A stretch of DNA of 64,000 nt from an uncultured delta proteobacterium (lineage in GTDB: Bacteria > Desulfobacterota > Binatia > DP-6). This document shows, piece by piece, positions 23,210 through 39,768 of the stretch (its first letter is position 1; each line of letters begins with the position of its first letter). The translations under genes and the position numbers were made by a program. The stretch lies in assembly GCA_963815115.1 (NCBI GenBank), contig CAWFFN010000009.1, forward strand, positions 1,216,001-1,280,000. The letters are read 5' to 3'. The notes below the pieces were generated by a model. The model saw only the letters and a program-made list of their open reading frames with translations, ran no database searches and had not been told where the DNA came from.

Positions 23210-23307
23210 TTCCAGTCACCTTTCTGCCAGCTCTCACCGCGCTGGCGGCGGGTACACGCTCATTCGAGAAGAGGAGTCCGGCGGCGGGCCGCGGCTCCAG
23301 CGCGCCG

Positions 23308-23553: not shown

Positions 23554-24236
23554 CTAGCTTGCTGGCGGTTTAAATCGCTTCCGAGGCGGCTTAATTCGCG
23601 GTCGAGGCGGTTTAATTCGTCGTCGAGGCGGTTTAATTCCGGTCCGGGTTCGCCGCCGTCCGCTGTGGCGCCGGTACGCCTCTTCGACCCGCTCATGGAG
23701 CCGATCGATGTCCTGACGGATTTCGTCCGGAGTCCGATCAGGAGCCGCCGTCCCGAACGTCACGCGCCGGCCACACCGCCAGCACATCCGCCACCCGGAG
23801 AACATCAGCGCCAGGGTGGCAGCAACAACAACATCACGCCGATGGGGCGCGTTTTCCTCTGCAACCGGTGCACGTAGTCGACCGTGGCCACGACGCAGGC
23901 GGTAAAGAGCACCTCGTGGGGGCGACCGCGGCCGCGTGGGCCACGGGGGAGTTGGTCAAGGTGATAGAACCAGTGTGCCGCCCGACACAGCCCTTCGTCG
24001 GTGCGCGGGTTGCTACCCGTGCGCTCCTCAAACGCCTCGGAGAGCGAGCGGGCGGCGGTCCCGAGGAGGTCCTCCGCCCGACAGGGCGCGGTCTCGAAGA
24101 GGTCGCCCGTCCATGCGGACAGCACTGGCCCTGATGCGGGCGGCGGCACACCATCCGGGTCGCTGTCGGCCGCCACATCCTGGCGCAAGCCCGCGCCACA
24201 CAGTGCGCACTCTCTCCGCGGCCTCGTCCTCGCCAT
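23554..24236 (-). CDS. Hypothetical protein (two ORFs possibly joined by a frameshift near 23845)
   Basis: CALC in 23805-24251 and CWRC in 23554-23805; one extra base in a homopolymer would fuse them. Confidence 0.35.
23564..23640 (+). repeat. Four 21-bp-period direct repeats (GGCGGTTTAATTCG), iteron-like
   Basis: Copies start at 23564, 23585, 23606 and 23627. Confidence 0.75.
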
Positions 24237-24426
24237 CCCGCCGTCTCCCAAACCCGCCGCCTTGAACGCCGCGGGGCGAGGGGCGGACGGCGAGGTCCAC
24301 GCCCCTCTAGCGCCCGGCCGGGCGCCCCCGCGGTCGAGGGGATGCTACTCGCTCCCTTGGGGCTGTGCGAGGTCGAGGTCCACCGCCGCGCGCCGTCACG
24401 CTACGACGAGAGCGAGCGCCCTGCGG

Positions 24427-25128
24427 CTAGCCTATTGGATCGCGCACTACTTCTTTCCCCTGAGCGGCCACCATCCGCTCGAACTGTTCCAGCATCCCGA
24501 TATGGTCCATTGTTCGGAGCGGCGCCTGGGAAAAGTACACATTGTCGCCATACGGAACCCCGTCGCGACGGTCGATCCGGAAGAAGCTGGGCAGCGGAAG
24601 CTGACCTGGATCGGGAAGCATCTCTAGCGCTTTGAGTCGAAACTCGGGGAGCGCGACATCATTCGGAACACTCGGGTCGTACTGTCTAACCGCGCCCGAG
24701 AGCCAGAGGCCCATCTGCTTTGCGAGTGGTGACGCCGCCCACTCTAGCGGCACGTCGAGACGAACCTCCACGTGGCTCGTGTAGAGCCGCCGAGGGCTGA
24801 TCTCTTGAGCGATGCCGTCTGCCGCGCTTAGGAGGTCATCGATCACCGCGTCCGCGTCGTCCGTGGAGGCTGGCGTATCGGCCGTGACCGCCTGCGGATA
24901 GAGAGCCAGGCTGTTGATGACAATCGGTCGCCCCTCACGGACAAACTTGCCATGCCTGAACACGATGGGTGTCGAACTATCCAGAGGGGCAATGTCCTTG
25001 GCCTCGACCGGAACATGCACAAAGCCGTATCGCTCGCGAAGGGCGGCGATGATGTCTGGTATGTAGACGGGCTTGAGCGGCGCGATGAGCCTAAAAGCCT
25101 GTGCGAAAAGCACGGCTTGAAGTTTCAT
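24427..25128 (-). CDS. Hypothetical alpha/beta protein, third gene of the toxin-antitoxin cassette
   Basis: 233 aa; lower-GC codon usage; ATGA overlap with the antitoxin stop. Confidence 0.75.
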   Translation of the reverse strand: MKLQAVLFAQAFRLIAPLKPVYIPDIIAALRERYGFVHVPVEAKDIAPLDSSTPIVFRHGKFVREGRPIVINSLALYPQAVTADTPASTDDADAVIDDLLSAADGIAQEISPRRLYTSHVEVRLDVPLEWAASPLAKQMGLWLSGAVRQYDPSVPNDVALPEFRLKALEMLPDPGQLPLPSFFRIDRRDGVPYGDNVYFSQAPLRTMDHIGMLEQFERMVAAQGKEVVRDPIG

Positions 25129-25606
25129 CCTCCAATGGCCTCAAGCGCGGGAATGTGAAGGAACGGCTGCGCCGCCCGAACGGGCTGCGTGGTCTTCCTG
25201 CCTTGTAGAAGTTCCGGGATGCCCTTGTTGTCTGCGGGTGGTTGGGATGCCTGGAGGGGCTCCTTGTGCAGTGACTTCACGACGTCTTCGACGCTTGCCA
25301 GCGGAGTTTCAACTAGGTCGGTGACGAGCCGAGTCGGATCAACAGCCATCCCAACCATGAGATCGCTAATAGTATTGAGGGTGCAGTTACCGGGCGAACA
25401 AAGCCAGCGCGTGATCTGCGATGGCTCCCGACGCAGCCGGTTGGCGAGGCGAAGTTTATTTATTTCGCCCGCATCCTCCAGCCGAGAAACTCCCTGATGA
25501 CAACGTCATACAGGACGTTCTGGAGGTTCCGCCGAAAGAACCACACGGCCTTCTCAGGAACGACCTCATCATCGAGGGACAAGTCGGGCGTGAGATAGGT
25601 AGGCAT
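25125..25606 (-). CDS. XRE/HigA-like HTH antitoxin with long C-terminal tail (frameshift near 25488; not in the ORF track)
   Basis: Manual translation: MPTYLTPDLSLDDEVPEKAVWFFRRNLQNVLYDVVIREF / SRLEDAGEINKLRLANRLRREPSQITRWLCSPGNCTLNTISDLMVGM... Confidence 0.7.
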
Positions 25607-26114
25607 CAGGATGTACCCCTTCCGTTACGGGCTCCTCCGGCAAGAGGCGATCCCACTCCTCCCTGCATTCGAGACTCGCTGCGGCAAATGCCTCTCGATC
25701 TGGTAGGTCCCTGCGGTATCGCCATGCGAGCGCGACGAAAACATTTCTGAACGCGAAACGACCAAAGATACGTATAGTCGGCTGCCTTCTGGTGCTTCTG
25801 ATCTCCCACACTTCCTCATGGCCGGGATCGATCCGTGCTAGATAGCTCTGCTCGTCGTCGCCGTCGTCGTAGTAGCCATCCCTGCGGACCGCCAGCTCTC
25901 GCCCCGACACGAATTCGAGCAAATCGGCACCGACCTCCGTCCATCGCTTTTGATCTTTCGCGGATGCTGGGCCCTCCAACAAAAGGCGGTGGATAGCGAC
26001 GGAAACATACAGCTCGCGGCCCCTGCCTCGGCTCGCGCGCTTCGGGAACACTCGGTGCAGGCGCCGTTCGTCGCATAGCCGGTTGATCGCCTCTCGATTT
26101 GACATATAAGTCAA
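25569..26114 (-). CDS. RelE/HigB-like toxin
   Basis: LARIDPGHEEVWEIRSTRRQPTIRIFGRFAFRNVFVAL fits the RelE-fold WEIR..R.F pattern; upstream of an HTH gene. Confidence 0.65.
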   Translation of the reverse strand: MTYMSNREAINRLCDERRLHRVFPKRASRGRGRELYVSVAIHRLLLEGPASAKDQKRWTEVGADLLEFVSGRELAVRRDGYYDDGDDEQSYLARIDPGHEEVWEIRSTRRQPTIRIFGRFAFRNVFVALAWRYRRDLPDREAFAAASLECREEWDRLLPEEPVTEGVHPDAYLSHARLVPR

Positions 26115-26476
26115 CCGCCGGCAGAGTCAACTCAAACCTCTAGGTTTTCTCGGGTCGTCCGCCACGAGCCCATGGCCGCTCGAGATTGGCCAGGATGGCC
26201 TCGACGCCGGCCACCCCGCACCCACGGACAGGCACTTACCTAGTGCACCGGCCCCGATCGCGCTGGCGAGGCACCCCGCCGCCCCGAGCTGGTCGAGGAG
26301 TCACCCCCGGTTGGGAACTCGGGCACCCCGAAGAACTCGGCGACGACCGCCGCCCTTTCCGCTGCGTCCTCGGGCACCCAGCCGAGGACCGCAAGGATGA
26401 CGTCGTGGCAGGGGTCGGATCGGGCACGGTGAGCTTGTAGCCCAGTCTCAGCCGACGAGGCTACAGAGTCCTTGAG

Positions 26477-26737
26477 TCATCGCGGACCGACTTGGACGTT
26501 GAGGCTGCGACTATTGCCGTAGACTGCGGCCCGGCACCCTGCTGGGTCCCCGCCCTGACGGATGCAGCTATCAACGTCCGCAGCCTGGCGTTCGCGAGCG
26601 CGAGCTTCGGCCTCGCGACGTGCGCAGTAGGGGCTGTTGTGAATGCCTGCGATGCGAGAGCCCTCGTCGCCGCAAGGGACCATGCAGCCCACCAAGCCGA
26701 CTACTGTGACGAGGCACGCGCTCGGCAACAGGCGCAC
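26477..26737 (-). CDS. Small lipoprotein
   Basis: Lipobox LVGC after a hydrophobic stretch. Confidence 0.5.
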   Translation of the reverse strand: MRLLPSACLVTVVGLVGCMVPCGDEGSRIAGIHNSPYCARREAEARARERQAADVDSCIRQGGDPAGCRAAVYGNSRSLNVQVGPR

Positions 26738-26865
26738 GCTTGAGGGCTACCAATGTTCCCCTAGTCCTTCAAGGTGGGCGCCGAGGCGAGCCCGCTCCCA
26801 ACCCCGACGGCACCGCGTCCCGTCACCCTCCCAGGACGCGCGGGCGCGGGGCCGCCGGGTTCACG

Positions 26866-27087
26866 TCACCGCCGCGGCCGCCCACCGCCCGCGAGGCGAG
26901 CGGCCTCCCGCAGCAAGACCTGCCGCACCCAGGACTCGCGCGAGACGTGACAGCCCGCCGGAGCCCGTGCCTGGGCGCGCTGCACGGCCTCGTCAACCGC
27001 GCCAAGGAGCCCGTCGACGTCGCGCAGGAGGAAACTCCGGACGTGCCGCCGGGCCGGTGGCGGGACGGTGAAGTCGTCGTCGGTCAC
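26866..27087 (-). CDS. Small RHH-like protein
   Basis: SFLLRDVD...VSRESWVRQVLL; GTGA overlap with the upstream gene. Confidence 0.45.
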   Translation of the reverse strand: MTDDDFTVPPPARRHVRSFLLRDVDGLLGAVDEAVQRAQARAPAGCHVSRESWVRQVLLREAARLAGGGRPRR

Positions 27088-27419
27088 GGCGCCTCGTCCT
27101 GGTCGTGCTCGTCGGCATCATCCTCCCAGAACACGTCGGCGCCCTCGGCCCGCGCGCGGCGCTTGACCTCGTTCCAGACGCATTCCGACAGCGTCGTCTC
27201 CGGGTCCAACCAGGGTCGGAATTCCCGGGCCTGCTCGTGCCGCTGGAGCGCGCCGCAGGTGCTGCCGCGCCAGTCCTCGATCACGCGCAGCGCATCCCAG
27301 GTCCCATTCCCCTCACGTTCGATCCGGCCCGCTTGCTCGGCCCGCACGATCGCAGGCTGGCTCACGCCCAGGATCCGGGCTAAGGCGACGTTCGTCTGAA
27401 CGATCGCGTACCACGGCAT
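27084..27419 (-). CDS. Terminase small subunit (Nu1)/Rpp-like winged-HTH protein
   Basis: ALARILGVSQPAIVRAEQAGRIEREGNGTWD...VIEDW resembles a Nu1-type DNA-binding domain; directly downstream of the cos-like site. Confidence 0.6.
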   Translation of the reverse strand: MPWYAIVQTNVALARILGVSQPAIVRAEQAGRIEREGNGTWDALRVIEDWRGSTCGALQRHEQAREFRPWLDPETTLSECVWNEVKRRARAEGADVFWEDDADEHDQDEAP

Positions 27420-27543
27420 GTGATTCCCTCCGGGGGTTACTCAGCACCACGTGGGTTTCCCCGCCTCCTCGGGCGGGAACCGTCGGCGATCCGCACGGTT
27501 GCTGCGCCGACGTGCTGGCCGTGTGACCCCCTTTTTGGGGGTC

Positions 27544-27605
27544 AAATAGCGGGGCACGCTGCCCCCCGCTGACCCGAGTAGCTTTCCGAGACGGCGGAAG
27601 GACCC
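27544..27605 (-). other. Lambda-like cos site (cosQ-cosN region)
   Basis: Minus strand GGGTCCT (cosQ; 27605-27599), with CGCTATTT starting 54 bp later, as in lambda cos. Confidence 0.6.
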
Positions 27606-27626
27606 GAACCGTTCGCAGCGAGAATG

Positions 27627-28205
27627 CTAGCGCTCATCGCTGCGGTGGGGCCGTTGCACGCGGAGCGCCCGGCCGAGGAGGACGCTGCCGTCGAGGCATG
27701 CGATGACGGCGTCGGCATCCTCGGGGTCCTTGAGCCAGACGTGGGCCGAGGACCTGCCGTTGCCCGAGTGCATGACGACCTTCCAGACCGGAGCGACGGG
27801 CGCGATGTGGTCCTCCAGGTCGACCTCGCATGCGTTGTTCGGGACGTTCCCGATGTACACATGCGCGCCCTGGCGGCCGGCTGGCGGGGCGGGGCGCGGA
27901 GGAGCCTGGCCGGGTGGCGGACGCTTGGAGACGCGCACCGTCCGGCCGAGGAGCGGGCGCGCGGGGAGCGCGGCCAGGGCGCGCTCGGCCTCATCGACCG
28001 TGCGGAAGAGCACCACGGCGGCCTCGACGTCGCCGCGGTCGTTCCGCAACGGGGTGACCTCGAGGGGCGTGATGCCGCTGCCCTCCTCGACGTAGCGACG
28101 GAGCTGGCCCTGCGTCACCTGGCCCGGCAGGCCGCCGAGAAACAGCTCGCACGCGCGCCGGGCCAACGGGGAGAAGCGGGGCTCGACCACCGTGGACCCA
28201 GGCAT
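27627..28205 (-). CDS. Tandem RRM RNA-binding protein
   Basis: RNP2 motifs LFLGGL and VYIGNV; each domain ends LLGR.(V/L)RV. Confidence 0.8.
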   Translation of the reverse strand: MPGSTVVEPRFSPLARRACELFLGGLPGQVTQGQLRRYVEEGSGITPLEVTPLRNDRGDVEAAVVLFRTVDEAERALAALPARPLLGRTVRVSKRPPPGQAPPRPAPPAGRQGAHVYIGNVPNNACEVDLEDHIAPVAPVWKVVMHSGNGRSSAHVWLKDPEDADAVIACLDGSVLLGRALRVQRPHRSDER

Positions 28206-28206
28206 G

Positions 28207-28747
28207 TCAGCTCGCGAGCACTTCGGGACTGAACAGGATCTCAGGAGAGGCGTCGCCGCGGCGATCGAGCGTGATGCCCTGCTGCGCAGCGCTGCAGATC
28301 AACTTCTCCTCGTCGAGCTCGAGGGTGCGCAGGCGGTCGCGCAGGGCGGCAAGGCCTGCGGGGCGCTCGGCCGCCGGGATCGCCGCCCGGACCAACTCGG
28401 GACCGGCCGCGTAGATCGCCCGCAGGCGCGCCCGCAGCACGGCAAGGAGCGGCTCACGGTGAACCGTTGCGATGAAGGCCGCCGCGCGTTGCGCCTCATA
28501 CTGTGGATCGGGCACGAGCAGCTCGACCGTCCCAAGGTCCCCGCCGCCCGGGCGGATGAACGCGGCGAGCACGGGCGTCGGGTCGTAGAGTTTGGCGAGC
28601 CGGTCGACGCTCGCGACCAGGGCGTCCTCGGCCTCAGGACAAGGCAGGGGGGCGCCGGCAATGGTCTGCAGCTCGGCCGTGGTCGCGGCAATCTGCGCGC
28701 GCAGGGCCGTGACGGTGGCGGTGATGTCGTCACTCGGCTTCTTCATG
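28207..28747 (-). CDS. Hypothetical helical satellite protein
   Basis: GAGGAG RBS before MKKPSDDIT; coiled-coil-like. Confidence 0.6.
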
Positions 28748-28756
28748 CGCTCCTCC

Positions 28757-29211
28757 TCACCCAGCCAGGCCGAGGTACTGCCGGCAGCGCGCGACGAGCT
28801 GGCCGAGCCGCTGCGCGCGTTCGTATGCCGAGTCACGCGCGCCGCTGACGCGGGCGCACTCGGCCTGCGTCTCCTCGAGCTCGCGCGCCACGTCGTCGAG
28901 GTTGTCGCCGATGGCGGGCTGCCACGTCCGCGCCGTCGGGCCACGGCTGGGATCGCGCACCCATTGCCCGGGATGCAAGGTCGGGTGCGTCACGCGCAGC
29001 TCCTCGAGGCGGCGCGCCAGGCGCTGCTCCTCGTCCCGGAGGGCGCGCGCCTGCTCGGTGAGGATGCGGGCGCGCTCCCGGGCGACCTCGGCGTCCGTCT
29101 CCATCGCTTCCAGCTTCTCCGCGCCGCGGCCGACAGCGCCTGGCGGGCGCGCCGGGCGCCGCCCGGGACGGTGAGCGGGCCCGGCGTCAGCGCGCCGGCC
29201 TCGGTCCTCAT
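28757..29211 (-). CDS. Coiled-coil hypothetical protein (frameshift near 29120)
   Basis: MRTEAG...ALSAAAR continues as EKLEAMETDAEVARERA if one G is added. Confidence 0.5.
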
Positions 29212-29465
29212 GGCGTCGCCCGCCGGGCGGCCTGCGCGGCCATGACAGCGGCGTGTCGAGCCGCATAGATGCTCTCGGCGTCGAGCGTCGCCGGCTCAGG
29301 TTCCCGCGGTGCCGGCGCCGGGGCCAGCGCGGTGGCCGCGGCGCGCTGATAGCGGCCCGCGAGCCCCTGCAACGTCGCCACCGTGTTCCCGTGCTGCGCG
29401 ATCAGGGCCGCATGCTCGGCCAGGATGCCGCACGCGGCCCGGACCTCCTCCGTCGTGGTGCTCAT
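29208..29465 (-). CDS. Hypothetical protein
   Basis: AAAGGAG RBS; ATGA overlap with the next gene. Confidence 0.55.
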   Translation of the reverse strand: MSTTTEEVRAACGILAEHAALIAQHGNTVATLQGLAGRYQRAAATALAPAPAPREPEPATLDAESIYAARHAAVMAAQAARRATP

Positions 29466-29598
29466 GGGTCAGTCTCCTTTCGAGCGGCAGCGGCCTCCAC
29501 GATGCGTGGCGAACCCGAGGCCATGCGTTCGGGTGCGGGTCGGCCAGCGGGGAAGGATGGGCCCCGCCAGTCGATCGCCACGCATCGTGCAGGCCGCG

Positions 29599-29880
29599 TC
29601 AGCGGCATCGCGGCAGCTCCTGCACGGCGTGCCGCTTCAGGTAGGCGGTTCGCAGGGCCTGCTTCGAGACCACCGGCACGCTGGTGGCCGCGCCCGCCGC
29701 ACACCACGCGGTCTCCGACACGCCGGCGTGGTCGAGCACCACGAGGAGCGCCTCGGGGTCGACGGGGCCGCGCGCGAGCACGCCGCGCACGAAGGCCCGG
29801 ACCAACTCGGCGCGGTCAAGCACCACGCCGCGGCTGGCGCGACAGAGGGCGGCAAGGTCCTGGGCGCGGGCGGGACTCAT
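29599..29880 (-). CDS. Hypothetical protein
   Basis: MSPARAQDLAALC start overlaps the stop of the upstream HTH gene. Confidence 0.4.
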   Translation of the reverse strand: MSPARAQDLAALCRASRGVVLDRAELVRAFVRGVLARGPVDPEALLVVLDHAGVSETAWCAAGAATSVPVVSKQALRTAYLKRHAVQELPRCR

Positions 29881-30083
29881 GCCGCCCCCCGCGGGCGCCG
29901 GGTGCGCGCGAGCCACGCCTCGACATCGCTCAATCGGCAGCGGCTCCACCCGCCAGGATCGAAGATCGGCAACTCCCCGCGCTCCGCGGCCTGAAAGAGG
30001 AGGTGGCGGCCGATGCCGAACAGCCGGGCGGCCTGCCGCACCGTCACGAGGCGCTCGACGTCGACCGCTGGGACGTCCATCAC
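29877..30083 (-). CDS. Excisionase-like (HTH_17) DNA-binding protein
   Basis: LVTVRQAARLFGIGRHLLFQAAERGELP...LSDVEAWL; TTGACA at 30114-30109 upstream. Confidence 0.75.
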   Translation of the reverse strand: MMDVPAVDVERLVTVRQAARLFGIGRHLLFQAAERGELPIFDPGGWSRCRLSDVEAWLARTRRPRGAA

Positions 30084-30263
30084 ACAGTAGGACTAATACA
30101 GCCGCAAATGTCAAGAAGCGCAACGAATGATCAGGACGCCGCGCCCTGGCGCCGGCCAAGGTACTGGGACTCGACGACGACCACCGGAACTGGAATCCTG
30201 TGCCGTGGACGCCAGTCGCGCATCCGCCACGGCTCTGATACGCGGCGTCAACGCTCGGCAGGC

Positions 30264-30731
30264 ATGAGTGTCGAAGTCAGAGCTGTTGCTCCACGGCGTC
30301 GCCTACGACGCGCATTCGAGCGCGTCCTGGCCATCTTCCTGCCGTGGGAAGTGTGCCTCCGGCGGGAGCTGCGCTTCACCGATCTCCCGATCTACGATGA
30401 CGATCCCCGTCACGATGAGAGAGATCTCGAGGAGGAAGAGTACTTCGACAGGGAGCGGATCTGGGAGACCGGCAAATGGTGCCTGCGGGCGTACAAGTAC
30501 CATGCTCGTCTCCCCCCCTACCCCCCAGTAAACGAGGAGAATGAGTTCTGGGAACGGCCGTACTACCACCGCAGCAGACTCGTTCTCACTGAGGCGGGGA
30601 AGGCGGAGATACACCGTCAGATTCGGGAAGATCGCACCGTCTGGTTTCGTGTCGTCACCGCGCTAGTTCTTGCCGTTACGGGATTGCTCGGGACGCTCAT
30701 CGGGTTGTTGTCGTTCCTGAAGGCAAGATGA
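30264..30731 (+). CDS. Cargo protein with C-terminal transmembrane helix
   Basis: LVLTEAGKAEI wHTH-like motif, then VVTALVLAVTGLLGTLIGLLSFL. Confidence 0.65.
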   Translation: MSVEVRAVAPRRRLRRAFERVLAIFLPWEVCLRRELRFTDLPIYDDDPRHDERDLEEEEYFDRERIWETGKWCLRAYKYHARLPPYPPVNEENEFWERPYYHRSRLVLTEAGKAEIHRQIREDRTVWFRVVTALVLAVTGLLGTLIGLLSFLKAR

Positions 30732-30851
30732 ATCACCTGACAGCGAACGAGCGGGGCATGGCGGGGTAACGTAGTCGATTTCGGTTCCGGTAAGGGGCTT
30801 TGGTAGAATGGCCTTGAGGCGGACTTCGACCGGCTCACTAAGGAGAAACGC

Positions 30852-31193
30852 ATGAGCGACGCGAGCTACCCTTGGGAGAAGATGTATCAAGCCATGCGGA
30901 TGCTGCTGACGCCGAGTCAGGATGCCCGAAAGATGGCCATCCATGCACTCGGCGAGTTCAGCGCCGCGTTCGGTGCTCCCAACAAGGTTCCCGAATGGGC
31001 GGCGAGCGAAGTAAGCAAGGTGCGCCATATCGCGCCGTTCCACGAGATCAAGGATGCCGGCTCAGAGGGCACCATCGCCGCGTGGGTCAACCAGGCCAGC
31101 TTGGAAGAGCTGGACGAGCTCTATGACGCGCTGTTGTCTCTCTTCATGCGGACCGTCGAGAGGCGCGAGCGGCAGTACCCACGGGCGGACTAG
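30852..31193 (+). CDS. Hypothetical cargo protein
   Basis: AAGGAG RBS; helical 113-aa ORF. Confidence 0.65.
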   Translation: MSDASYPWEKMYQAMRMLLTPSQDARKMAIHALGEFSAAFGAPNKVPEWAASEVSKVRHIAPFHEIKDAGSEGTIAAWVNQASLEELDELYDALLSLFMRTVERRERQYPRAD

Positions 31194-31324
31194 GGACCTC
31201 GTTCGCCATCGCCGGAGCCTCCATCCGGGGTCCCGTGCTTCGCAGCCCGCTGTGCGGCGCCTCGTTGCGACGGAGGGTCAGCGGTGCCCGGCCGGTCTCG
31301 AGCGGCTGCCGGGGGGTGTCACGC

Positions 31325-31346
31325 GGTCATGGACAGTTCATGGACA
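31325..31346 (+). repeat. Integrase arm-type sites, right end
   Basis: GGTCATGGACA-GTTCATGGACA. Confidence 0.75.
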
Positions 31347-31405
31347 ATCCGCCCGGCCGCCGCCGAAAACCCTAGCATCTACGGGGCGAATTGCCCGGCG
31401 TGCCC

Positions 31406-31421
31406 GCGACATCGTGTCGCA
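31406..31421 (+). promoter_or_regulatory. attR core and putative RegA box upstream of the copper operon
   Basis: GCGAC-N5-GTCGC; GCTAAT -10-like hexamer at 31443-31448; GTG start at 31457. Confidence 0.75.
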
Positions 31422-31456
31422 TTCCGGTGGCCCGCGCGAGGCGCTAATCGCAAGCC

Positions 31457-32413
31457 GTGCACCGCTCCCGCTGGCAGTCGATCGCCCAGTGCTTCGGCGC
31501 GCTGGGGATCCTCCTGGCCGCCTCGGCCACGCCCGCGGGCGCGCACGGCATCGTCGGACAGCGGTTCTTCCCGGCCACGCTGTCGATCGACGATCCCTTC
31601 GTGGCGGACGAGCTCTCCCTCCCCACCGCCGGGTTCACCAGGCAGCGGCGCACGGCGGAGGCGCCGTCCACGCTCGAGACCGAGTTCAGCGCGGAGCTGT
31701 CCAAGCGCCTCAGCACCAACCTGGGTCTGTCGCTCGGCGCCGCCGTGATCATGGACGCGCCCCGCGGCGGACCCACCATCGCCGGCTTCGACAACATGGA
31801 GATCGGGCTCAAGTACGTCTTTCTCAAGCGCGCCGAGAACGAGCTGCTCCTCTCCGGTGGCGTCGACATCGACGTCGGGGGAACCGGCCAGGAGCGCGTG
31901 GGCGCCGAGCCCTTCTCCACCTTCACGCCGTCGCTGTTCTTCGGCAAGGGCATGGGCGATCTGCCCGACGACCTGCGCTATTTGAAGCCGTTCGCGTTGA
32001 CCGGCGCGCTCGGACTGGCCCTGCCGGTGCGCACGGATCCGCGGGTCTTCCAGTGGGGCTTCACACTCCAGTACAGCCTGCAGTATCTCCAGTCGTTCGT
32101 GCAGGACGTCGGCTTGCCAGCGCCGTTCGACCGGATGATCCCGATCGTCGAGTTTCCCATCCAGACGACCGTCGAGGGACGGAGCCGGACGGCCGGCAGC
32201 ATCAACCCGGGGGTGATCTGGTTCGGCCGGTACATCCAGCTCGGATTCGAGGCCGTGATCCCGGTCAACGGCAACACGCTCGATCCCGAGGAGCAGGGTC
32301 GCCAGAGCGGCGTCGGCTTTCTCGGCCAGATTCACTTCTACCTGGACGACATCTGGCCGGATGTGTTCACCTGGACCCCGTTCGACGGCGTGCTGGGGCC
32401 CACCCAGCCATGA
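31457..32413 (+). CDS. Putative outer-membrane beta-barrel associated with copCD
   Basis: Signal peptide; mature N-terminus HGIVGQRFFPATLSIDDPFVADEL; amphipathic strands. Confidence 0.75.
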   Translation: MHRSRWQSIAQCFGALGILLAASATPAGAHGIVGQRFFPATLSIDDPFVADELSLPTAGFTRQRRTAEAPSTLETEFSAELSKRLSTNLGLSLGAAVIMDAPRGGPTIAGFDNMEIGLKYVFLKRAENELLLSGGVDIDVGGTGQERVGAEPFSTFTPSLFFGKGMGDLPDDLRYLKPFALTGALGLALPVRTDPRVFQWGFTLQYSLQYLQSFVQDVGLPAPFDRMIPIVEFPIQTTVEGRSRTAGSINPGVIWFGRYIQLGFEAVIPVNGNTLDPEEQGRQSGVGFLGQIHFYLDDIWPDVFTWTPFDGVLGPTQP

Positions 32414-32787
32414 TGTCGCGCCGTCGGACAGCCGCTCCGGCCGTCATGCTGCTGGCGGCGCTGTTCCTGGGAGCGCCGGCACCGGCATGGTGCCATGCGT
32501 TTCCCGATCATTCGGAGCCGCGCGTCGGCCATACCCTGGACGAGCCGCCGGCGTCGGTCCGCATCTGGTTCGACGGCGACCTCGAGCCCGTCTTCAGCAC
32601 GATGCGCGTCGAGAGCGCAGCGCAGCAGCGCGTCGATCGGGGCGACGCGCAGGTCGACCCGCACGACGCCACCCTGCTCGAGGTGAGCCTGCCGCCGCTG
32701 TCGTCGGGCACCTACCAGGTCTTCTGGAGCGCGGTGGCACGCGACGGCCACCGCACGGAGGGCAGCTTCCCCTTCCACATCAAGTGA
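32410..32787 (+). CDS. copC: Copper resistance protein CopC
   Basis: Mature N-terminal HAFPDHSEP; C-terminal YQVFWSAVARDGHRTEGSFPF. Confidence 0.92.
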   Translation: MMSRRRTAAPAVMLLAALFLGAPAPAWCHAFPDHSEPRVGHTLDEPPASVRIWFDGDLEPVFSTMRVESAAQQRVDRGDAQVDPHDATLLEVSLPPLSSGTYQVFWSAVARDGHRTEGSFPFHIK

Positions 32788-32794
32788 CGCCGAT

Positions 32795-33733
32795 GTGGCA
32801 GCCTCAAGGGCCGGCCGAGGCCGTCGTCTGACCCTGCTCACGCGCTGGGCCGGTCTGGCCGCGCTGGCCGCGCTGCTCGGTGGTCTCGTGGTCGCGGTCG
32901 TGGCGCTGCCGGCCGGCGACGAGGGTCTGGCGCGTCGGCTCGCATCCTGGGGTCGCACCTGCGTCGTGGTGCTCCTCGTCACCAGCGCGAGCGAGCTCCT
33001 GCTGCGCGCGTGCACGATGGCGGGCGGCGAGCTCGTGGCCGGTCTGGGGGCGGTGCCGGCGGTGCTGGCGCGCACCCACTTCGGGACCGTGTGGATCGCG
33101 AGGCTCGTCGTGCTCGTCGGCCTGCTCGCGCTGATCGGCCGCCGCAGCCGCGCGGCGCGTACGCTGGCATGGGGCCTGGCGCTCGCGCTCGCCTTCACCA
33201 CCGCCCTCGTCGGCCACGCGGCCGACCGTGGCGATCTGTCGCCGGCGGTCCTGGTCGACTGGCTCCACGTCACGGCGGCCGCGGTCTGGACGGGCGGACT
33301 CTTCTGCCTCGCCGCGGTCGTGCTGCGTGAGGCGCGCCACTGGCCGCGCGCGCGCCTCGCCGGATCGCTGGGGCGCTTCTCGACGCTGGCAGGGGTCTGT
33401 CTCGTGGCCGTGGTCGCCAGCGGCGTGTTCAATGCCTGGGAGCAGCTCGGCGCGCTCGACGCGGTGTGGACGACCACCTACGGAGCGATCCTCGGTGTGA
33501 AGATCCTGCTGGTCGCCACGGTGGCAGGGCTCGGAGCCGCCAACCGCTTCACGGTCCTGCCACGGCTGCGCGCCGGCACGTTCCCGCCGGGTCGCGCCGA
33601 GCTTCGCCTGGCTCGCTACGTCGCGTGGGAAGCCGCGCTCGCACTCCTGGTCTTCGGCTGCACCGCGTTGCTGACGGAGTCCACGCCGCCGCACCACCAT
33701 GCCGACATGGCGCCCGCGAGCCGGCCGGGCTGA
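32795..33733 (+). CDS. copD: Copper uptake/resistance membrane protein CopD
   Basis: LVGHAAD, DWLHVTAAAVWTGGL, RFSTLA, TTYGAILGVK; 5' end uncertain (possible indel at 32828). Confidence 0.88.
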   Translation: MAASRAGRGRRLTLLTRWAGLAALAALLGGLVVAVVALPAGDEGLARRLASWGRTCVVVLLVTSASELLLRACTMAGGELVAGLGAVPAVLARTHFGTVWIARLVVLVGLLALIGRRSRAARTLAWGLALALAFTTALVGHAADRGDLSPAVLVDWLHVTAAAVWTGGLFCLAAVVLREARHWPRARLAGSLGRFSTLAGVCLVAVVASGVFNAWEQLGALDAVWTTTYGAILGVKILLVATVAGLGAANRFTVLPRLRAGTFPPGRAELRLARYVAWEAALALLVFGCTALLTESTPPHHHADMAPASRPG

Positions 33734-33745
33734 GAGGGCTGGCGC

Positions 33746-34198
33746 TCAGGCGGTCGAGAGGAGCTTCGCCTCGGAGACGAATCGCGCGCACGAGTCGGCG
33801 CACGCCTTGCACACCGCGTGGGTCTCGGCGTGCTTGCGGCACTCCTTCTCGCAGTCCTCGCAGACGGCGCGGCAGGCGGTCGCGAACTCGCCGAGCCGCG
33901 CCGCTCCCAGGGTGGCGAGCTCGGCCACCGCCGAGCACGCGGGGATCATCTCCGCCACGCTCTGGGCGCACGCGGCGAGCGACGTGTCACCGCTCTTGAA
34001 CATCCCCAGACAGTGCGCCAGACACGCCTGCCCGTCGGAGCTGCACGAGCGAGCTGCGTCGACGAGGGCCTGATGGTCCCCTTTCGGGTGCGCCGCGGGC
34101 TCGTCGGCCGCACCCGCGAGTGCGGCGCTGGTCACGCTGGCCGCCACGGCCGCACCGGCACTCAGCAAGAGATTGCGACGCCCGATCACGTATTCCAT
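33746..34198 (-). CDS. Tat-exported four-helix-bundle copper storage protein (Csp1/2-type)
   Basis: Twin-Arg GRRNLL signal; CLAHC, CRAVCEDCEKECRKH, CKACADSC. Confidence 0.88.
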   Translation of the reverse strand: MEYVIGRRNLLLSAGAAVAASVTSAALAGAADEPAAHPKGDHQALVDAARSCSSDGQACLAHCLGMFKSGDTSLAACAQSVAEMIPACSAVAELATLGAARLGEFATACRAVCEDCEKECRKHAETHAVCKACADSCARFVSEAKLLSTA

Positions 34199-34390
34199 GG
34201 CTGCACCTCCACCGCGGGGCTAGCACGGAGGGTGGCGCGGTTCCATCCAACGGGAGGCGGCGTGAAGGCTGCCGGGACGGCCCGGTAGCGGGCTGGTTTC
34301 AGCGCCGTTGCGCGGCCGGAAGCAGCCCGCGCGCAGGCGTGGAAACCGTGTACGTCGTCGCATGGAGCGCCGCTTGCTCCGGCCGTCGGC

Positions 34391-35128
34391 ATGGCGCCGG
34401 CAATCCGGTTCATGGCGGGAGGCTTCCAGGTCGTCGTCTCGAGCCACGCGGTCCTGGTGGTGCTCGCGGTTTTCGCCGGCACGCTCGTGGCCGTGGCTCG
34501 AGCGCGCGAGCCGGCGCTGGTCTTTGGCGCCGCGCCGTTCGGCGCCGCGGCAGCGCTGGCGGGCAGCCATCTGCTGTTCCGCGTGCAGCACGGTGGAGCT
34601 GGCGGGCTCTGGTCGGGCGGCCTGTCGTCGACGGGCGGCATCGGCGCCCTTGCGCTCGCGATCGCGGTGGCGGCCGGGGGCTCGCGCCGGCGGTTCGCCG
34701 ACCTCGCCGATGCCGTGGCGCCCGCCGGCATCCTGGCGCTCGGGATCGGCCGGCTCGGCTGCTTCCTCGGCGGCTGCTGCTACGGACGCCCGACGGACCT
34801 GCCGTGGGCCGTGGTCTTCCCCGAGGTCGGGCCGCCGGCGCGCCACCCGCTCCAGCTCTACTCGGCAGGCCTCGACTTCCTGCTGGCGGCCGCGCTGCTC
34901 GGCAACACCGAGCCGCCGGGCGCCATCGCGGCGCGCGCCTGCGTCGGTCTCGGCGTGGGGCGGTTCTTTCTGGAGCTGTTGCGCGATCCCGCGACGAGCG
35001 ATCAGCTCGGCACGACCGGCCTCACGCTCGCCCAGTGTGGCGCGCTCGTCCTCGTCGCATCGGGTGGGCTGGCGGCGTGGCGTGCGACCCGAGACTCCGT
35101 CTCGGGTCGGGACGGAGAGCGAGAATGA
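34391..35128 (+). CDS. Prolipoprotein diacylglyceryl transferase (Lgt) family protein
   Basis: IGRLGCFLGGCCYGRPTDLPWAVVFP, HPLQLY, RFFLELLR. Confidence 0.85.
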   Translation: MAPAIRFMAGGFQVVVSSHAVLVVLAVFAGTLVAVARAREPALVFGAAPFGAAAALAGSHLLFRVQHGGAGGLWSGGLSSTGGIGALALAIAVAAGGSRRRFADLADAVAPAGILALGIGRLGCFLGGCCYGRPTDLPWAVVFPEVGPPARHPLQLYSAGLDFLLAAALLGNTEPPGAIAARACVGLGVGRFFLELLRDPATSDQLGTTGLTLAQCGALVLVASGGLAAWRATRDSVSGRDGERE

Positions 35129-35222: not shown

Positions 35223-37760
35223 CTAGTCGCGGAGGTGTGGTACGCCTGGAACGCCTGCCGTGCCCTGCTCCAGCGCCCGGTTCGCGACGCTGGCAGTGTC
35301 GGCGTCGCCCGCGCGCCGGCGTTCCTCCGCGATCGCCGACAGGGCCTCGCGCACGGGACGCGCCGCGGGGGCCACTGTGAGCGCATCGAGATACGCGCGA
35401 AGCTCGCCGGGGCCGTCGCCGGCGAGGAGGGCGAGCTGCGCGCGCAGCAGGTTTGCGCGCACCGCGAACGATGCTGCCGCTGCGCCCCCGACCGGGGCCG
35501 GAGCGGGATCGAGGCGAGCCGCGATCCAGCCGAGCGCCGCCGCGCCGAGACCCCCCTGATGATAGTAGGCGCGCGGCGCGCTGAACTCGATGGTGGGACG
35601 GTCGTCGGTGATCGGCGGCACGTCGCGCGTGGCGGCGCGGAGATGCGCACCGTCGGTGACGTAGAGCAGGGGGACGGCGTCCGGGTCGTCGAGCCCCACG
35701 CTGCGCGCCATGGCGAGGAAGGCCGGGTTGCCCAGGCGGGCGCGCATGGCGGCCGCATCGGCGGTGAGCGGATCCGTCGAGCCGACCAGCATCGCGAGCG
35801 GCGTCAGCGAGCGATGATATGCCACCCAGAGCTGGACGTGCGGGAAGACCGAAGCGAAGGTCGCGACGATTCCCTCGAGATCGCCGACCGCAAGCTGGTG
35901 CAGCGGGAGCCACTGGCAGAAGAGTCCGCCGGGCGCGAGATGCGCGAGCGCGAGCCGGTAGAAGTCGCGCGAGAAGAGGCTGCCCGCACCCGCCGTCCAG
36001 GGAAGGACGAGATCGACCAGGATCACGTCCCAGCGCGCGTCGCTGGCGAGCAGGAAGCTGCGCGCGTCGTCGGCGACGAGGTGCGCGCGCGGGTTCCTGG
36101 ACACGTCGCCGTTGTCGGCGGCGAAGAACGCCGCCGCGTCCAGCGCCTCGGCAACCAGCTCGACGCCGTCCGCCTCGAGCCCCGGCGAGGCGACGGCGGC
36201 GCCGAGGGTGTCGCCGGTCCCGACGCCGAGGTGCAGCAGGCGTCGCGGATCCGGGTGGAGGAGGACCGGCAGGAGACCTTCGCGGCGCTCGAGGAAGACG
36301 CCATCGCCGCCGCCGAGGGAGTACTGGCCGTTGATGCGGAGGCGGCGACGATCGTGCGCGTCGGTGGTGACGAGCACGGTCGCGGTCGGCCCATCGCGCG
36401 AGTGGAGGACGCGGTCGGTGGGTCCCGAGCGCCACGGAAACGGGAGCGGGGGCGCGAGCGCGGCGGCGCCGGCGAGTCCGGCAGCCACGCTCGCCGCCAG
36501 GGCGCGCGCTGCGCGGCGTGACGCCAGCGCCGCGGCGAGCGCGAGCAGCACTGCCGCGAGCAGCAGAAGGCCGCCGCCGAGGCCGAGCCCGGGAAGCAGG
36601 ACGAACGCTCCGGCGAGCGCGCCCAGGATGCCGCCGGCGGTGCTCGCGGCGAGCGGGCCCGCCATCGCGGCGCCGGGGCGAAGCGAATCGCCGAGGCCGA
36701 GGGTGATCGGCAGGAGGGTGCCGATCGCCGCAGACGGTACGAAGACGACGTGGAGCGCGAGCACGGCCTCCACCGCCAGCCCCGCGGCGCCGCCCCCGCC
36801 GAGGCTTCCGACCAGCGCGAGGCTGATGCCCGGGAGCGCGCGCAGAGCAGGGACCGACGTCAGCACGGCCAGCGCCGCCACCGTGGCGGCAACGGCGAGG
36901 CGCGGCTCGAGACGGCCGGGACGCGCCAGCACCCGCAGTGCGATGGCCGTGCCCGCGACGATCCCGAGCAGCGCCGCTGCCAGCACGAGCGCCGTGCTGT
37001 AGACGCTGCCGCTGAGCACCCCCGACAGCCCGCGCGCCCACAGGACCTCGCCAGCGAGCGCGACGGCGCCGGCAGTCCCGGCGACGGCGGCGGCGAGCCC
37101 GGGGCGCGCAGCGCCGCCGCGGGCCCGCGCCGGCGTCTCGGCCCACACGGTGGCCGGCGCCCGGTGCGCGAGCATCCAGGCCGCGGCGGCGACGGCAAGG
37201 TCGACGGCACCGGCGGCGAGAAAGGAGCCGCGGGCGCCGAGCGCGGGCAGCAGGGAGAAGCTCGTGGCCAGCGCGCCGACGGCCCCGCCGAGGGTATTCC
37301 AGCCATAGAGCCGTCCGGCGGCGCGTACGCTCGCCGCGGCCGCCGCGGCGACCGGAAGGGTGGCGCCCAGGAGCGTCGTCGGCACGAGCAGCACCGCGCC
37401 CGCAAGGAGGACGTGCGTGGCGGGGCGCAGCGCGCCGGGTGCGACTCGCGCGAGCCACGCCGCAAGACCCGGCAGCGCCGGCCGCAGGATCACGTAGCCC
37501 GCGATCGAGACGGCGAGGCCGGCCAGGAGCCGCGCGAAGGTGCGCAGCGGCAGCCGGCCGATCCGGAGCTGGCCGCCCACGCGGGCCCCCAGCGCGAGCC
37601 CCGCGAAGTAGGTCGCCAGCACCACGCCGGTGGCTTCGGCGGTGCTGCCGAAGCAGAGTGTGAAATCCCTGATCCAGAGCACCTCGAGCGCGAGCGCGGC
37701 GGCGCCCGAGACGAAGAGAAGGACGGGAAGCACGGCGGCCGTCAAAGCCCGAAGGCGCAT
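35223..37760 (-). CDS. Membrane-domain-fused spermidine synthase-like protein
   Basis: SGAAALALEVLW, LYGWNTLGG, LHLGVGTG, DDARSFL, TDDRPTIEF. Confidence 0.88.
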   Translation of the reverse strand: MRLRALTAAVLPVLLFVSGAAALALEVLWIRDFTLCFGSTAEATGVVLATYFAGLALGARVGGQLRIGRLPLRTFARLLAGLAVSIAGYVILRPALPGLAAWLARVAPGALRPATHVLLAGAVLLVPTTLLGATLPVAAAAAASVRAAGRLYGWNTLGGAVGALATSFSLLPALGARGSFLAAGAVDLAVAAAAWMLAHRAPATVWAETPARARGGAARPGLAAAVAGTAGAVALAGEVLWARGLSGVLSGSVYSTALVLAAALLGIVAGTAIALRVLARPGRLEPRLAVAATVAALAVLTSVPALRALPGISLALVGSLGGGGAAGLAVEAVLALHVVFVPSAAIGTLLPITLGLGDSLRPGAAMAGPLAASTAGGILGALAGAFVLLPGLGLGGGLLLLAAVLLALAAALASRRAARALAASVAAGLAGAAALAPPLPFPWRSGPTDRVLHSRDGPTATVLVTTDAHDRRRLRINGQYSLGGGDGVFLERREGLLPVLLHPDPRRLLHLGVGTGDTLGAAVASPGLEADGVELVAEALDAAAFFAADNGDVSRNPRAHLVADDARSFLLASDARWDVILVDLVLPWTAGAGSLFSRDFYRLALAHLAPGGLFCQWLPLHQLAVGDLEGIVATFASVFPHVQLWVAYHRSLTPLAMLVGSTDPLTADAAAMRARLGNPAFLAMARSVGLDDPDAVPLLYVTDGAHLRAATRDVPPITDDRPTIEFSAPRAYYHQGGLGAAALGWIAARLDPAPAPVGGAAAASFAVRANLLRAQLALLAGDGPGELRAYLDALTVAPAARPVREALSAIAEERRRAGDADTASVANRALEQGTAGVPGVPHLRD

Positions 37761-37789: not shown

Positions 37790-37808
37790 TGCGACATCGT
37801 GTCGCATT
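37790..37808 (+). promoter_or_regulatory. Putative RegA/PrrA binding site in the divergent speE-like/regB intergenic region
   Basis: TGCGACATCGTGTCGCATT, identical to the reconstructed attB. Confidence 0.75.
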
Positions 37809-37880
37809 GCCGCCCGCCGCCGCGAACCCCGAGAGTGGCGGGGATTTGCCCGCGTGCACGCTTCCCGGAAATATCGAGCC

Positions 37881-39218
37881 GTGATCGACCCTCGAGCCCA
37901 TCGCCCCGGCGCCCCGGCGGGCACCCAGGCCGAGGATGCACGCGCGGCGGTCAGCTTGCCCTGGCTGACCCGGCTGCGCTGGGGCACCGTCGCCGGCCAG
38001 CTGGTCACGGTCGCCGTCGGTCACTGGACGCTCGGTCTCGGCCTGCCGCTCGCCCCCGTGATCGGGCTGATCGGCGCCACGGCCGTGACGAATCTCGCCC
38101 TGGTCCGCTGGCTGCGCGACGGGGGCACGGCCGGCCCCGGGCTCTGCGGCGCCGTTCTCGTCCTCGACACGCTCGTGCTCACCGCGCTGCTGCACGCATC
38201 GGGAGGCCCGTTCAACCCGTTCAGCGTTCTCTACCTGGTGTACATCATGCTGGCGGCGGTGGTGCTCGGCGCGGCATGGACCTGGTCGCTCGCCGGTCTC
38301 TCGGTCGCCTGCTACGTCGCCCTCTTCGTCCTGCCCGTCCCCGTCGGCGTGCATCACGCGCACGGCGAGGGTGCCCTGTCGCTGCATCTCTGGGGCATGC
38401 TGGTGGCATTCGTCGTGGCCGCCGTGCTGACGGCGTACTTCGTGGTGCGCCTCTCGGCCGCCATCGAGCGCCGCGACGCGGAGATCGCGGCCATGCGCGA
38501 GCAGGCGACGCGCACCGAGCGCCTCGCCGCGCTCACCACGCTCGCCGCCGGTGCGGCGCACGAGCTCGGGACGCCGCTCGCGACCATCGCCGTCGCGGCG
38601 ACCGAGCTCGAGCATGCCCTCGAACGGCTCGCGGCCACCGGAGCCGGGCCGCTGCGCGACGATGCCCGTCTCATCCGTTCCGAGGTCGAGCGCTGCCGGC
38701 GCATCCTCGATCGCATGGCGAGCGATGCCGGCGAAACCGCCGGGGAGGCGCCAGCGCTCGTACCGGTGGACGGCCTCGTGCGCGACGTCCTCGCCGCCCT
38801 GCCGCCAGAGGACGCCAGCCGCGTGCGCGTCGAAGGCCTCCCGATGGCGCTGGCATCGGCGTTGCCGCGGCGCGCAGTCGCGGGCGCGATCACCAGCCTG
38901 GTGCGCAACGCCCTCGACGCGACCAGGGCGCCCGAGCCGGTGCGGCTGCGCGTCGAGGCGAACGAAAGCGTGCTGCACGTCGAGGTGCTCGACGACGGTC
39001 CGGGCATGACCGCGGAGGTGCTGGCGCGAGCCGTGGAACCCTTCTTCTCGACCAAGCCGCCCGGCAAGGGCATGGGCCTCGGTCTCTTTCTCGCCCGCAC
39101 CCTGGCGGAGGGCCTCGGCGGACGGCTGACGCTCAAGTCGGCGCCCGGGGAGGGCGCGACGGCCGCGCTCGAGCTGCCGCGCGTGACGCTCGCGGGCGCG
39201 GGGGCGAGCCGTGTCTGA
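37881..39218 (+). CDS. regB: RegB/PrrB/ActS-type redox sensor histidine kinase
   Basis: Quinone motif SGGPFNPF; H-box AAHELGTPL; redox Cys ERCRRIL; GMGLGLF. Confidence 0.9.
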   Translation: MIDPRAHRPGAPAGTQAEDARAAVSLPWLTRLRWGTVAGQLVTVAVGHWTLGLGLPLAPVIGLIGATAVTNLALVRWLRDGGTAGPGLCGAVLVLDTLVLTALLHASGGPFNPFSVLYLVYIMLAAVVLGAAWTWSLAGLSVACYVALFVLPVPVGVHHAHGEGALSLHLWGMLVAFVVAAVLTAYFVVRLSAAIERRDAEIAAMREQATRTERLAALTTLAAGAAHELGTPLATIAVAATELEHALERLAATGAGPLRDDARLIRSEVERCRRILDRMASDAGETAGEAPALVPVDGLVRDVLAALPPEDASRVRVEGLPMALASALPRRAVAGAITSLVRNALDATRAPEPVRLRVEANESVLHVEVLDDGPGMTAEVLARAVEPFFSTKPPGKGMGLGLFLARTLAEGLGGRLTLKSAPGEGATAALELPRVTLAGAGASRV

Positions 39219-39768
39219 GCTGGCGCGCTCGCTGCTGCTGGTCGACGACGACGAGGTGTTCCGGCAGCGTCTCGCGCGAGCCTTCCGCGATCGTGGCTGG
39301 GAGGTGAGCGAGGCGGCGGACCTCGAGGCCGCGCTGGCGGCCGCCGAGCAGGAGACGCCCGAGTTCGTGGTGGTCGATCTGCGCTTGCCCGATGGCTCCG
39401 GCCTGGAGGCGGTGCGCCGGCTGCGCGCGCTCGACGCCACCACGGTGATCGTCGTGCTGACGGGCTACGGCAGCATCGCGACCGCCCTCGACGCGCTGCG
39501 CCTGGGCGCCGCCCACTACCTCACCAAGCCCGCCGACGTCGACGACCTGATCGCCGCATTCTCGCGCAACGCGCCAGTTGCCGACGACGCGCCGCTGGCG
39601 TCGCCCGATCCCGTGACCGACACGCCGTCGCTGGCGCGCGTCGAGTGGGAGCACATCAACCGCGTCCTCGCCGACTCCGGGGGCAACATCTCGGAGGCCG
39701 CGCGACGGCTCCGCCTGCACCGCCGCTCGCTGCAGCGCAAGCTCGCCAAGTATCCCGTGCCCCGCTGA
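39211..39768 (+). CDS. regA: RegA/PrrA/ActR response regulator
   Basis: LTGYGSIATA; SLARVEWEHINRVL...NISEAARRLRLHRRSLQRKLAK. Confidence 0.93.
   Translation: MSELARSLLLVDDDEVFRQRLARAFRDRGWEVSEAADLEAALAAAEQETPEFVVVDLRLPDGSGLEAVRRLRALDATTVIVVLTGYGSIATALDALRLGAAHYLTKPADVDDLIAAFSRNAPVADDAPLASPDPVTDTPSLARVEWEHINRVLADSGGNISEAARRLRLHRRSLQRKLAKYPVPR

Follow-up and report, generated by a model that had tools for sequence, protein, structure and literature searches.

Which host sequence does an integrative element recognise when neither of its ends lies in a tRNA gene? The question is raised by a 64,000-nucleotide stretch of DNA (the window; positions 1,216,001 to 1,280,000 of the forward strand of contig CAWFFN010000009.1, GenBank assembly GCA_963815115.1) from an uncultured member of the Binatia, lineage DP-6, in which a 13.6-kb element carrying its own integrase lies between two copies of a short palindrome, directly upstream of a copper-related (cop) operon. 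The window corresponds to G000:C9:1216001-1280000 of the metagenome-assembled genome (MAG) G000, which comprises 6.89 Mb in 12 contigs with a GC content of 70%; other G numbers denote related genomes, among them three other species of the genus (G001, G003 and G004), and L numbers denote loci or contigs used for comparison. Site-specific elements are thought to choose targets whose alteration the host could not afford, such as tRNA genes, dif sites and the ends of essential genes. The explanation that we consider probable for this locus is a site-specific insertion of the element within the core of a conserved operator of the RegA/PrrA/RegR type, which would represent a switch of integration target rather than a coupling of integration to regulation. 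Use of a RegA-type operator as integration target would be a new variant of site-specific integration, seen once.

Attachment sites and the restored palindrome

The two attachment sites and the host features around them are as follows.

17841-17857, unstranded: attL, a perfect 17-bp 7-3-7 palindrome with host DNA on its left; 16-bp core at 17842-17857.
31405-31421, unstranded: attR, a box that agrees at 16 of 17 bases (C instead of T at the first), with the host cop promoter on its right; core at 31406-31421.
31443-31448, plus strand: conserved TA-containing hexamer GCTAAT, 21 nt past the box and 8 nt before a GTG start codon; candidate -10 of a leaderless promoter.
31457-33733, plus strand: operon downstream of attR, with genes for a 318-aa secreted protein (31457-32413), copC (32446-32787) and copD (32795-33733).
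35223-37760, minus strand: speE-like gene divergent from regB, with a Spermine_synth domain (E 1.9e-7).
37790-37808, unstranded: separate, independent copy of the 19-mer in the form of an empty box; the ATG of the speE-like gene is 29 nt away and the GTG of regB 74 nt away.
37881-39218 and 39211-39768, plus strand: regB and regA, about 6.4 kb from the att box.

The direct repeat common to attL and attR is 16 bp long (17842-17857 and 31406-31421), and the spacing of its two copies gives the element a length of 13,564 bp. attL (17841-17859) reads TGCGACATCGTGTCGCA followed by cg, while attR (31405-31423) reads TGCGACATCGTGTCGCA with c as base 1, followed by TT. A first-pass annotation of the window had stated that removal of the element restores a 7-3-7 palindrome and that the identical 19-mer recurs between the speE-like gene and regB; comparison of attL with attR and inspection of 37790-37808 bear out both statements. 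The host dyad is TGCGACA-N3-TGTCGCA, of 17 bp, and the 16-bp att core covers almost all of it. With up to three mismatches the 19-mer has three matches in the window and none in any of 100 shuffles, and chance does not explain the agreement between the att and regB repeats. In the whole of G000 the 15-mer core occurs exactly three times, and the full 17-mer dyad with free spacer is confined to attL, the regB site and the small contig C11. Only four sites have at most one mismatch, two of them being the att sites; the other two are one exact 17-mer (regB, empty) and one site with a single mismatch.

Regarding the usual targets of such elements, no tRNA gene was detected at either junction (the only one in the window is a tRNA-Phe gene at 51370), no Rfam match was obtained within 16000-40000, and no open reading frame (ORF) with coding signal overlaps the attL or the attR core. 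The att site is thus free of tRNA genes and of ORFs with coding signal, in line with the earlier claim, and attB does not lie inside a tRNA or tmRNA gene at either junction.

Empty versions of the site were found in related genomes. Of 41 related genomes, 14 contain a homologue of the 318-aa gene that follows attR, and in G001, G003 and G004 the dyad precedes the orthologous gene heading copC and copD without any element, making four of four cop loci in the genus when G000 is included. The cop boxes of G003 and G004 have no half-site mismatches and carry other spacers (TCT and ACG), and two mismatches occur in that of G001. All four species have a G-N-T-A-N-N hexamer 21 nt past the box, with the start codon 8-9 nt past the hexamer in G000, G003 and G004 and farther away in G001; at none of ten loci outside the genus does a box lie near this gene. 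The GGGTT to the left of the attL box matches the empty sites whereas the bases to the left of attR, on the element side, do not, and the crossover therefore took place inside the box. A further empty box in G001 shares 27 identical nt with the G000 site restored by removal of the element and stands before a different secreted-protein gene. G001 has three exact 19-mer boxes in all and no element, and no second insertion in any box was found across 25 genomes of the order.

The palindrome might be solely the integrase's own core site, its other copies being scars or leftovers of elements without any host function. The 7-3-7 dyad fits the anatomy of tyrosine recombinase cores, in which inverted repeats surround a short overlap. 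This explanation is already contradicted, however, by half-sites that are conserved around varying spacers at the orthologous promoters of G003, G004 and G001, three genomes without an integrase match at E<=1e-20, and by the occurrence of boxes in other genera as well, and we regard it as hardly credible. Judged by these comparisons between genomes, the palindrome is a host sequence.

Several further occurrences of the palindrome or its parts were noted. The restored attB forms an extended, imperfect palindrome with CCGG outside the 17-mer on both sides (17837-17865 with 31417-31429); the regB box is without the outer CCGG, which might account for the presence of the element at the cop box rather than at the regB box. 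A variant box, TGCGACATCGCGTCGCA, in which the spacer TCG is replaced by a TCGC-type centre, is located at G000:C11:4953-4969 and G001:C8:434792-434808, the former on a 10.8-kb contig near a LuxR-type/alpha-beta-hydrolase gene. Two exact boxes of G001 lying 3.9 kb apart were considered as the ends of another element and rejected, the boxes being at gene starts and the two intervening ORFs scanned (186 and 728 aa) having no Pfam family. A putative second related copy at C12:178411 was likewise dismissed: the likeness of its element-side flank is due to chance and the site is the start of an ordinary gene. The exact 16-mer core was present in 39 contigs of IMG/VR, none of which resembled the element by blastn. 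The 17-mer palindrome also recurs in the AT-rich IMG/VR viral contigs L096, L102, L103 and L120 (37-38% GC), which are unrelated to the element; in L096, L102 and L103 (twice in the latter) it has conserved flanks, with GGT before the box and C/T C and then GTTTACATA after it, and the flanks in L120 differ. In these viral contigs the palindrome may serve a different group of phages as operator or terminator.

A candidate RegA-type operator and the cop promoter

The identity of the dyad is indicated by its placement, its sequence and the regulator encoded nearby. Upstream of regB the dyad is present with 0-2 mismatches at eight of ten orthologous loci in six genera, whatever the upstream neighbour, and the background in G000 for up to three mismatches is 0.018 matches per 300 bp. 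Where the upstream neighbour of regB differs (G002, G005, G006, G012 and G014) the box persists. Compared with the published consensus strings for PrrA (YSCGGC(5)GWCRMA), RegR and RegA, as quoted in PMC5506826, which is also the second-hand source for the consensus of Eraso and Kaplan (2009), the box agrees at 11 of 12 specified positions for PrrA and 10 of 11 for RegR and has one mismatch to RegA, being one position off each; its outer T and A fit the PrrA 17-mer consensus quoted there. Because motifs of the RegA type are degenerate, agreement with a consensus carries little weight by itself.

Regarding the regulator, regB and regA were confirmed close to the position, 6.5 kb away, given in the first-pass annotation. 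The local RegA matches the ActR/PrrA/RegA model NF033791 at 184 bits and aligns over its full length with a Burkholderia homologue. Compared with the PrrA structure 1UMQ, 17 of 22 aligned helix-turn-helix residues are identical (counted by hand) and the recognition helix HRR(S/T)LQR is kept. On placement and motif taken together, attB is well supported as a RegA-type operator, and the factor recognising it would probably, though by no means surely, be RegA itself.

The dyad may alternatively be the conserved operator of a different factor, for example a copper- or envelope-responsive one, or some other protein-binding site. RegA-type motifs, degenerate and GC-rich as they are, are easily matched at 70% GC (G000 holds 2,632 GCGNC-N5-GNCGC sites), the neighbours of boxes elsewhere are mostly proteins without a family, and in G000, G003 and G001 the regB-locus box is merely 29 nt from the divergent speE-like gene. 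Against this stand the attachment of the box to regB despite a changed neighbour in five genomes, the fit of its outer bases to the PrrA consensus as quoted, and the recognition helix shared with PrrA; moreover, some of the genes next to boxes in other genomes are cytochrome- or copper-related, encoding an NrfF/CcmH-like protein and an MbnH-family di-haem enzyme. Autoregulation of the reg operon is established for Rhodobacter and likewise counts against a different factor, which we consider unlikely. For an enrichment near respiration or copper genes G000 offers just the four sites with at most one mismatch, two of which are the att sites. To our knowledge, and with no literature search made on this point, nothing is known of a RegB/RegA system in Candidatus Binatia, and the locus would supply a sharply defined candidate RegA box for this uncultured phylum without known regulons.

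At the cop operon, the box is centred at 31413, 30 bp upstream of GCTAAT (31443-31448) and 44 bp upstream of the GTG start at 31457, in agreement with the distances first reported. From the end of the dyad it is 21 nt to the hexamer and 35 nt to the start codon of the secreted-protein/copC/copD operon, spacings that would place it against or over the -35 region. Of the 17 operator bases the reconstructed attP bears 16, and it also has a CCGGNGG stretch that is similar to the host flank. With a copy of the core present in attP, integration would duplicate the operator, and after insertion the attL box has 17 of 17 bases and the attR box 16 of 17, the latter at its native distance from hexamer and start codon. 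The upstream flank of the cop promoter is now element DNA; the last ORF of the element (30852-31193) reads toward the operon, and no terminator-like site was found between the two. The insertion may affect cop expression, but no observation points to such an effect. That the insertion works as a reversible switch of the cop promoter, as the first-pass annotation had suggested, remains speculation, given that operator and core promoter are regenerated at attR.

Some observations concern the promoter and the first gene in their own right. At cop and regB genes of several species the start codon lies 6-9 nt past a TA-containing hexamer (31443-31459 and 37869-37883 in the window; L002, L004, L018 and L019), a short distance that suggests leaderless transcripts in the clade. 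The 318-aa product of the first gene has no Pfam, NCBIfam or PDB sequence match; Atlas places it in unnamed 'transporter' clusters and, with high confidence but as a lead only, in a MetA-like outer-membrane (barrel) family. In other genera of the family the place of the box before the 318-aa gene is taken by a small Cys/His-rich ORF (CPMH...CHH motifs).

The integrase and its choice of target

The integrase gene adjoins attL, and a repeated sequence is found near both ends of the element.

17988-19123, minus strand: tyrosine integrase of about 378 aa with Phage_integrase and Int_N matches, its 3' end toward attL, split into two frames at 18266.
17959-17978, plus strand: tandem 10-nt repeat some 100 bp inward of attL, putatively an arm-type site for the integrase (P' side).
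31327-31346, plus strand: second copy of the same tandem repeat, on the P side, about 60 bp inside attR.

The catalytic domain was identified on the C-terminal frame (PF00589, E 1.4e-8) with the HDLRRSG, GGWKT and RYN motifs, and the same catalytic motifs occur in an intact homologue of 84% identity on metagenome contig L037. The 20-nt tandem repeat has just two copies in G000, one near each element end; G002 and L037, which hold the two closest homologues, have similar repeats after the stop codon of the integrase gene, and the repeats are plausible arm-type sites. The att direct repeats together with arm-type repeats on both sides give the element the layout of lambda-type systems. The integrase does not occupy a single uninterrupted frame: its N-terminal 286 aa and C-terminal 92 aa are in different frames that meet at 18266, where one C is absent compared with the intact L037 gene, which reads through. 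The primase-helicase of the element carries a 1-nt deletion near 21270, as judged against an intact 802-aa paralogue on contig C7. From its assembled sequence, this copy of the element is probably disabled. Reads were found in two low-share soil runs and in no RNA run; four 151-nt pieces of run X1 (soil metagenome) are identical to the window, one in the flank on each side and two inside the element, and in the two runs no piece spans attL, attR, the empty site or either frameshift. Separately, the G001 orthologue of the 318-aa gene (G001:C1:604444-605330) is also split into two frames, and indels of one base may be frequent in these MAGs, a possibility that affects the reading of the two frameshifts of the element.

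Homologues of the integrase are distant in the surrounding taxa: within the order they were detected in 5 of 25 genomes (best identity 49%) and within the class in 66 of 401 genomes (none above 48%), the latter tally including the three unpublished genomes G207, G350 and G371, on which no claim rests. An alignment-based search of the genome contigs returned only the G002 locus (46%), a single-protein query returned none, and no match to the integrase was found in IMG/VR. At 12 of 31 homologous loci a complete tRNA gene lies no more than about 350 bp from the 3' end of the integrase, at another a tRNA is found at 1.2 kb, and tRNA 3' fragments are visible at two further loci. None of the 31 has a box with 0-1 mismatches beside the integrase, and matches with 2-3 mismatches at five of them are roughly at background expectation. 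Operator targeting is not, as far as visible, a trait of the integrase family, contrary to the prediction that the att cores of homologous integrases would also be RegA boxes. Since relatives of the integrase use tRNA genes, the use of an operator here is best read as a target switch and not as regulatory coupling.

Under such a target switch, the 13.6-kb element would have been inserted by site-specific recombination within the 16-bp core by its own lambda-type tyrosine integrase, and the core copy of attP would have duplicated the operator so that attR keeps its native register with the cop promoter. This rebuilding of the operator would parallel the way in which tRNA-targeting islands restore the end of the tRNA gene, and the target would have changed from one conserved dyad-symmetric sequence, the tRNA gene, to another, the operator. 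The repeats, the empty sites, the conservation of the dyad and its agreement with the consensus are observed directly; from these patterns we infer that RegA binds, that the hexamer belongs to a promoter, what part the arm-type sites play and in which direction the target switched.

A more far-reaching explanation holds that the integrase evolved to use operators of the RegA regulon as landing pads, that phosphorylated RegA (RegA~P) gates integration and excision by redox state, and that insertion is a reversible cop switch. The att core coincides with the operator and attP itself bears the box, a second exact 19-mer lies 6.4 kb away, and the three exact 19-mers of G001 would be equivalent targets; with the box abutting the -35 region, bound RegA and integrase would also compete for the same DNA. 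The record of insertions argues otherwise. The first-pass annotation had regarded every close match as a potential landing pad, but no second insertion was found in the regB box or the single one-mismatch site of G000, nor in any box of the 25 genomes of the order, and none of the 31 homologous integrase loci lies beside a box with 0-1 mismatches. Gating and switching are further disfavoured by the frameshifts in integrase and primase, and we judge the whole explanation quite improbable. We would give equally little chance to an extension of it, in which the integrase clade switched from tRNA genes to the near-identical operators of a global redox regulator, of which genomes in the genus have from one to three or more, and uses them as interchangeable pads, RegA occupancy timing entry and exit.

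Several points weigh against insertion into a RegA-type operator followed by no more than a change of target. On the side of the integrase, its closest relatives (84% and 82% identity, on soil metagenome contigs L037 and L038) stop before the att core, L037 ending 55 bp short of the expected core and L038 holding the integrase N-terminus only; the frameshifts could be MAG consensus errors; and an operator as att site is a single case in one MAG, so that its weight is limited. On the side of the host locus, synteny between species does not extend to the left flank of the box, and the related genomes compared offer no strictly isogenic empty site. In G001 a VOC gene adjoins lgt, and the block 17777-34355 (element, cop cluster and csp1) is missing there (L060, G001:C1:660001-678000). 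A strict sigma-70 consensus scan of 31150-31500 returned no promoter, and the '-10' label therefore rests only on the conserved hexamer and its spacing. Concerning the operator, the factor could be another regulator than RegA. The scores of RegA (184 against 250) and RegB (258 against 350) are both under the NCBIfam equivalog cut-offs, and the loose pattern TGCGAC-N5-GTCGCA is not commoner than its reversed control (3 against 5 in G000, with no consistent excess over 25 genomes). The first-pass interpretation as a whole is upheld in part; for its claim that attB is a RegA-type box, conserved placement, consensus fit and the PrrA-like helix give good support, and the sub-cut-off scores and the behaviour of the loose pattern do not. 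In the literature, PrrA chromatin immunoprecipitation sequencing (ChIP-seq) in Rhodobacter yielded no strong motif (PMC4263372), and the RegA of Acidithiobacillus departs from published motifs (PMC5506826).

Among known systems, the tRNA/tmRNA-targeting integrases of genomic islands, P4-like satellites and phage-inducible chromosomal islands (PICIs) likewise have an integrase gene adjoining one att site and arm-type repeats flanking a short core. Their sublocations were reportedly surveyed by Williams in 2002. The islands likewise use a highly conserved, dyad-symmetric host sequence that is rebuilt from the attP copy and carry a module of int, AlpA and primase-helicase, and 12 of 31 relatives of the present integrase stand by tRNA genes; the target there is an RNA gene, whereas here it is an intergenic, predicted protein-binding dyad in a promoter. 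The operators of RegA/PrrA/RegR (ActR) share with the present box the GCG...CGC inverted repeat, a place before the reg operon itself and a cognate PrrA-like regulator, here encoded 6.4 kb away, but the box is far more exact than the degenerate alphaproteobacterial sites, identical 17-19-mers occurring at several loci and across genera. Integrative mobile elements exploiting Xer (IMEX; CTX-phi and similar) at dif also have an att site that is the site of a host DNA-binding protein, conserved for host reasons, a role that is predicted for the dyad here; however, they borrow the host XerCD proteins that bind dif, whereas the present element brings its own integrase and the host protein would be a putative transcription factor. 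Promoter-proximal or repeated short host motifs are likewise used by DDE transposons of the TnGBS/ISLre2 type (upstream of sigma-A promoters) and by phi-Rv1 (REP13E12 as attB), with several equivalent sites per genome possible; these rely on a DDE transposase and a serine integrase, respectively, and their targets are not known to be transcription-factor operators.

A full-text literature search, at the level of search results only, returned no description of a transcription-factor operator as attB. Such an operator would add a further class of target, with integrase and regulator on the same 17 bp. If regulator and integrase interact, mobility of the element could follow the redox state of the host and insertions could rewire promoters.

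Element content, sister element and location of the cop cluster

The following further features were found between attL and attR.

19152-19613, minus strand: small NikA-like/ribbon-helix-helix-type protein (E 7e-6, just under the Pfam cut-off), upstream of the integrase and kept there in L037.
19649-20047, minus strand: AlpA/HTH_17 protein, candidate excisionase or regulator.
20307-22579, minus strand: PrimPol and AAA_25 primase-helicase, its frame broken by the deletion near 21270.
23564-23639, unstranded: three iteron-like direct repeats spaced by 21 nt, candidate replication origin.
27084-27419, minus strand: 111-aa ORF that weakly matches a family of small terminase subunits (phrog_57, E 1.4e-4).
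29877-30083, minus strand: second ORF with an HTH_17 match, excisionase-like.

The element thus has the integrase, AlpA-type regulator and primase-helicase replicon, with a candidate origin, of phage satellites. Regarding genes for packaging or capsid redirection, the weak phrog_57 match (E 1.4e-4) was the sole one, and no capsid or tail family was detected among the 23 element ORFs scanned with Pfam, ten of them also with PHROGs. On account of the integrase, the arm repeats, the two AlpA/HTH_17 genes, the PrimPol-helicase with iterons and the possible small terminase, the element would be described as satellite-like or as a small mobilisable island. It also contains a 192-aa protein (27627-28205, minus strand) with two RRM_1 stretches, a eukaryote-type RNA recognition motif (E 4.5e-14).

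The position of the cop cluster differs among three species of the genus (G000, G001 and G003): in G001 the cop genes are about 55 kb away from the VOC-lgt junction, and in G003 they are on a different contig from regB. Under the improbable extension of the landing-pad explanation given above, recombination by the integrase between copies of the operator could also relocate adjacent genes and might account for these positions. The right edge of the G000-specific block (34260-34400) was considered as the place of an old att scar and this was discarded, its alignment scores to attR and attL being reached by 25 and 209 of 300 shuffles, respectively.

A sister element is located on contig C7 (G000:C7:1091600-1106760; L036:2615-17762), in a tRNA-Arg(ACG) gene. 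It shares the replication module (PrimPol-helicase) at 81% identity over 1.8 kb, plus a 463-bp stretch at 94%, and its integrase is intact and unrelated to the one described above; the two elements therefore share a backbone and differ in their integration modules. Repeats of the tRNA fragment at L036 positions 1468, 1839 and 2615 suggest successive insertions, and a DDE_Tnp_1_4 transposase gene is present inside the sister element.

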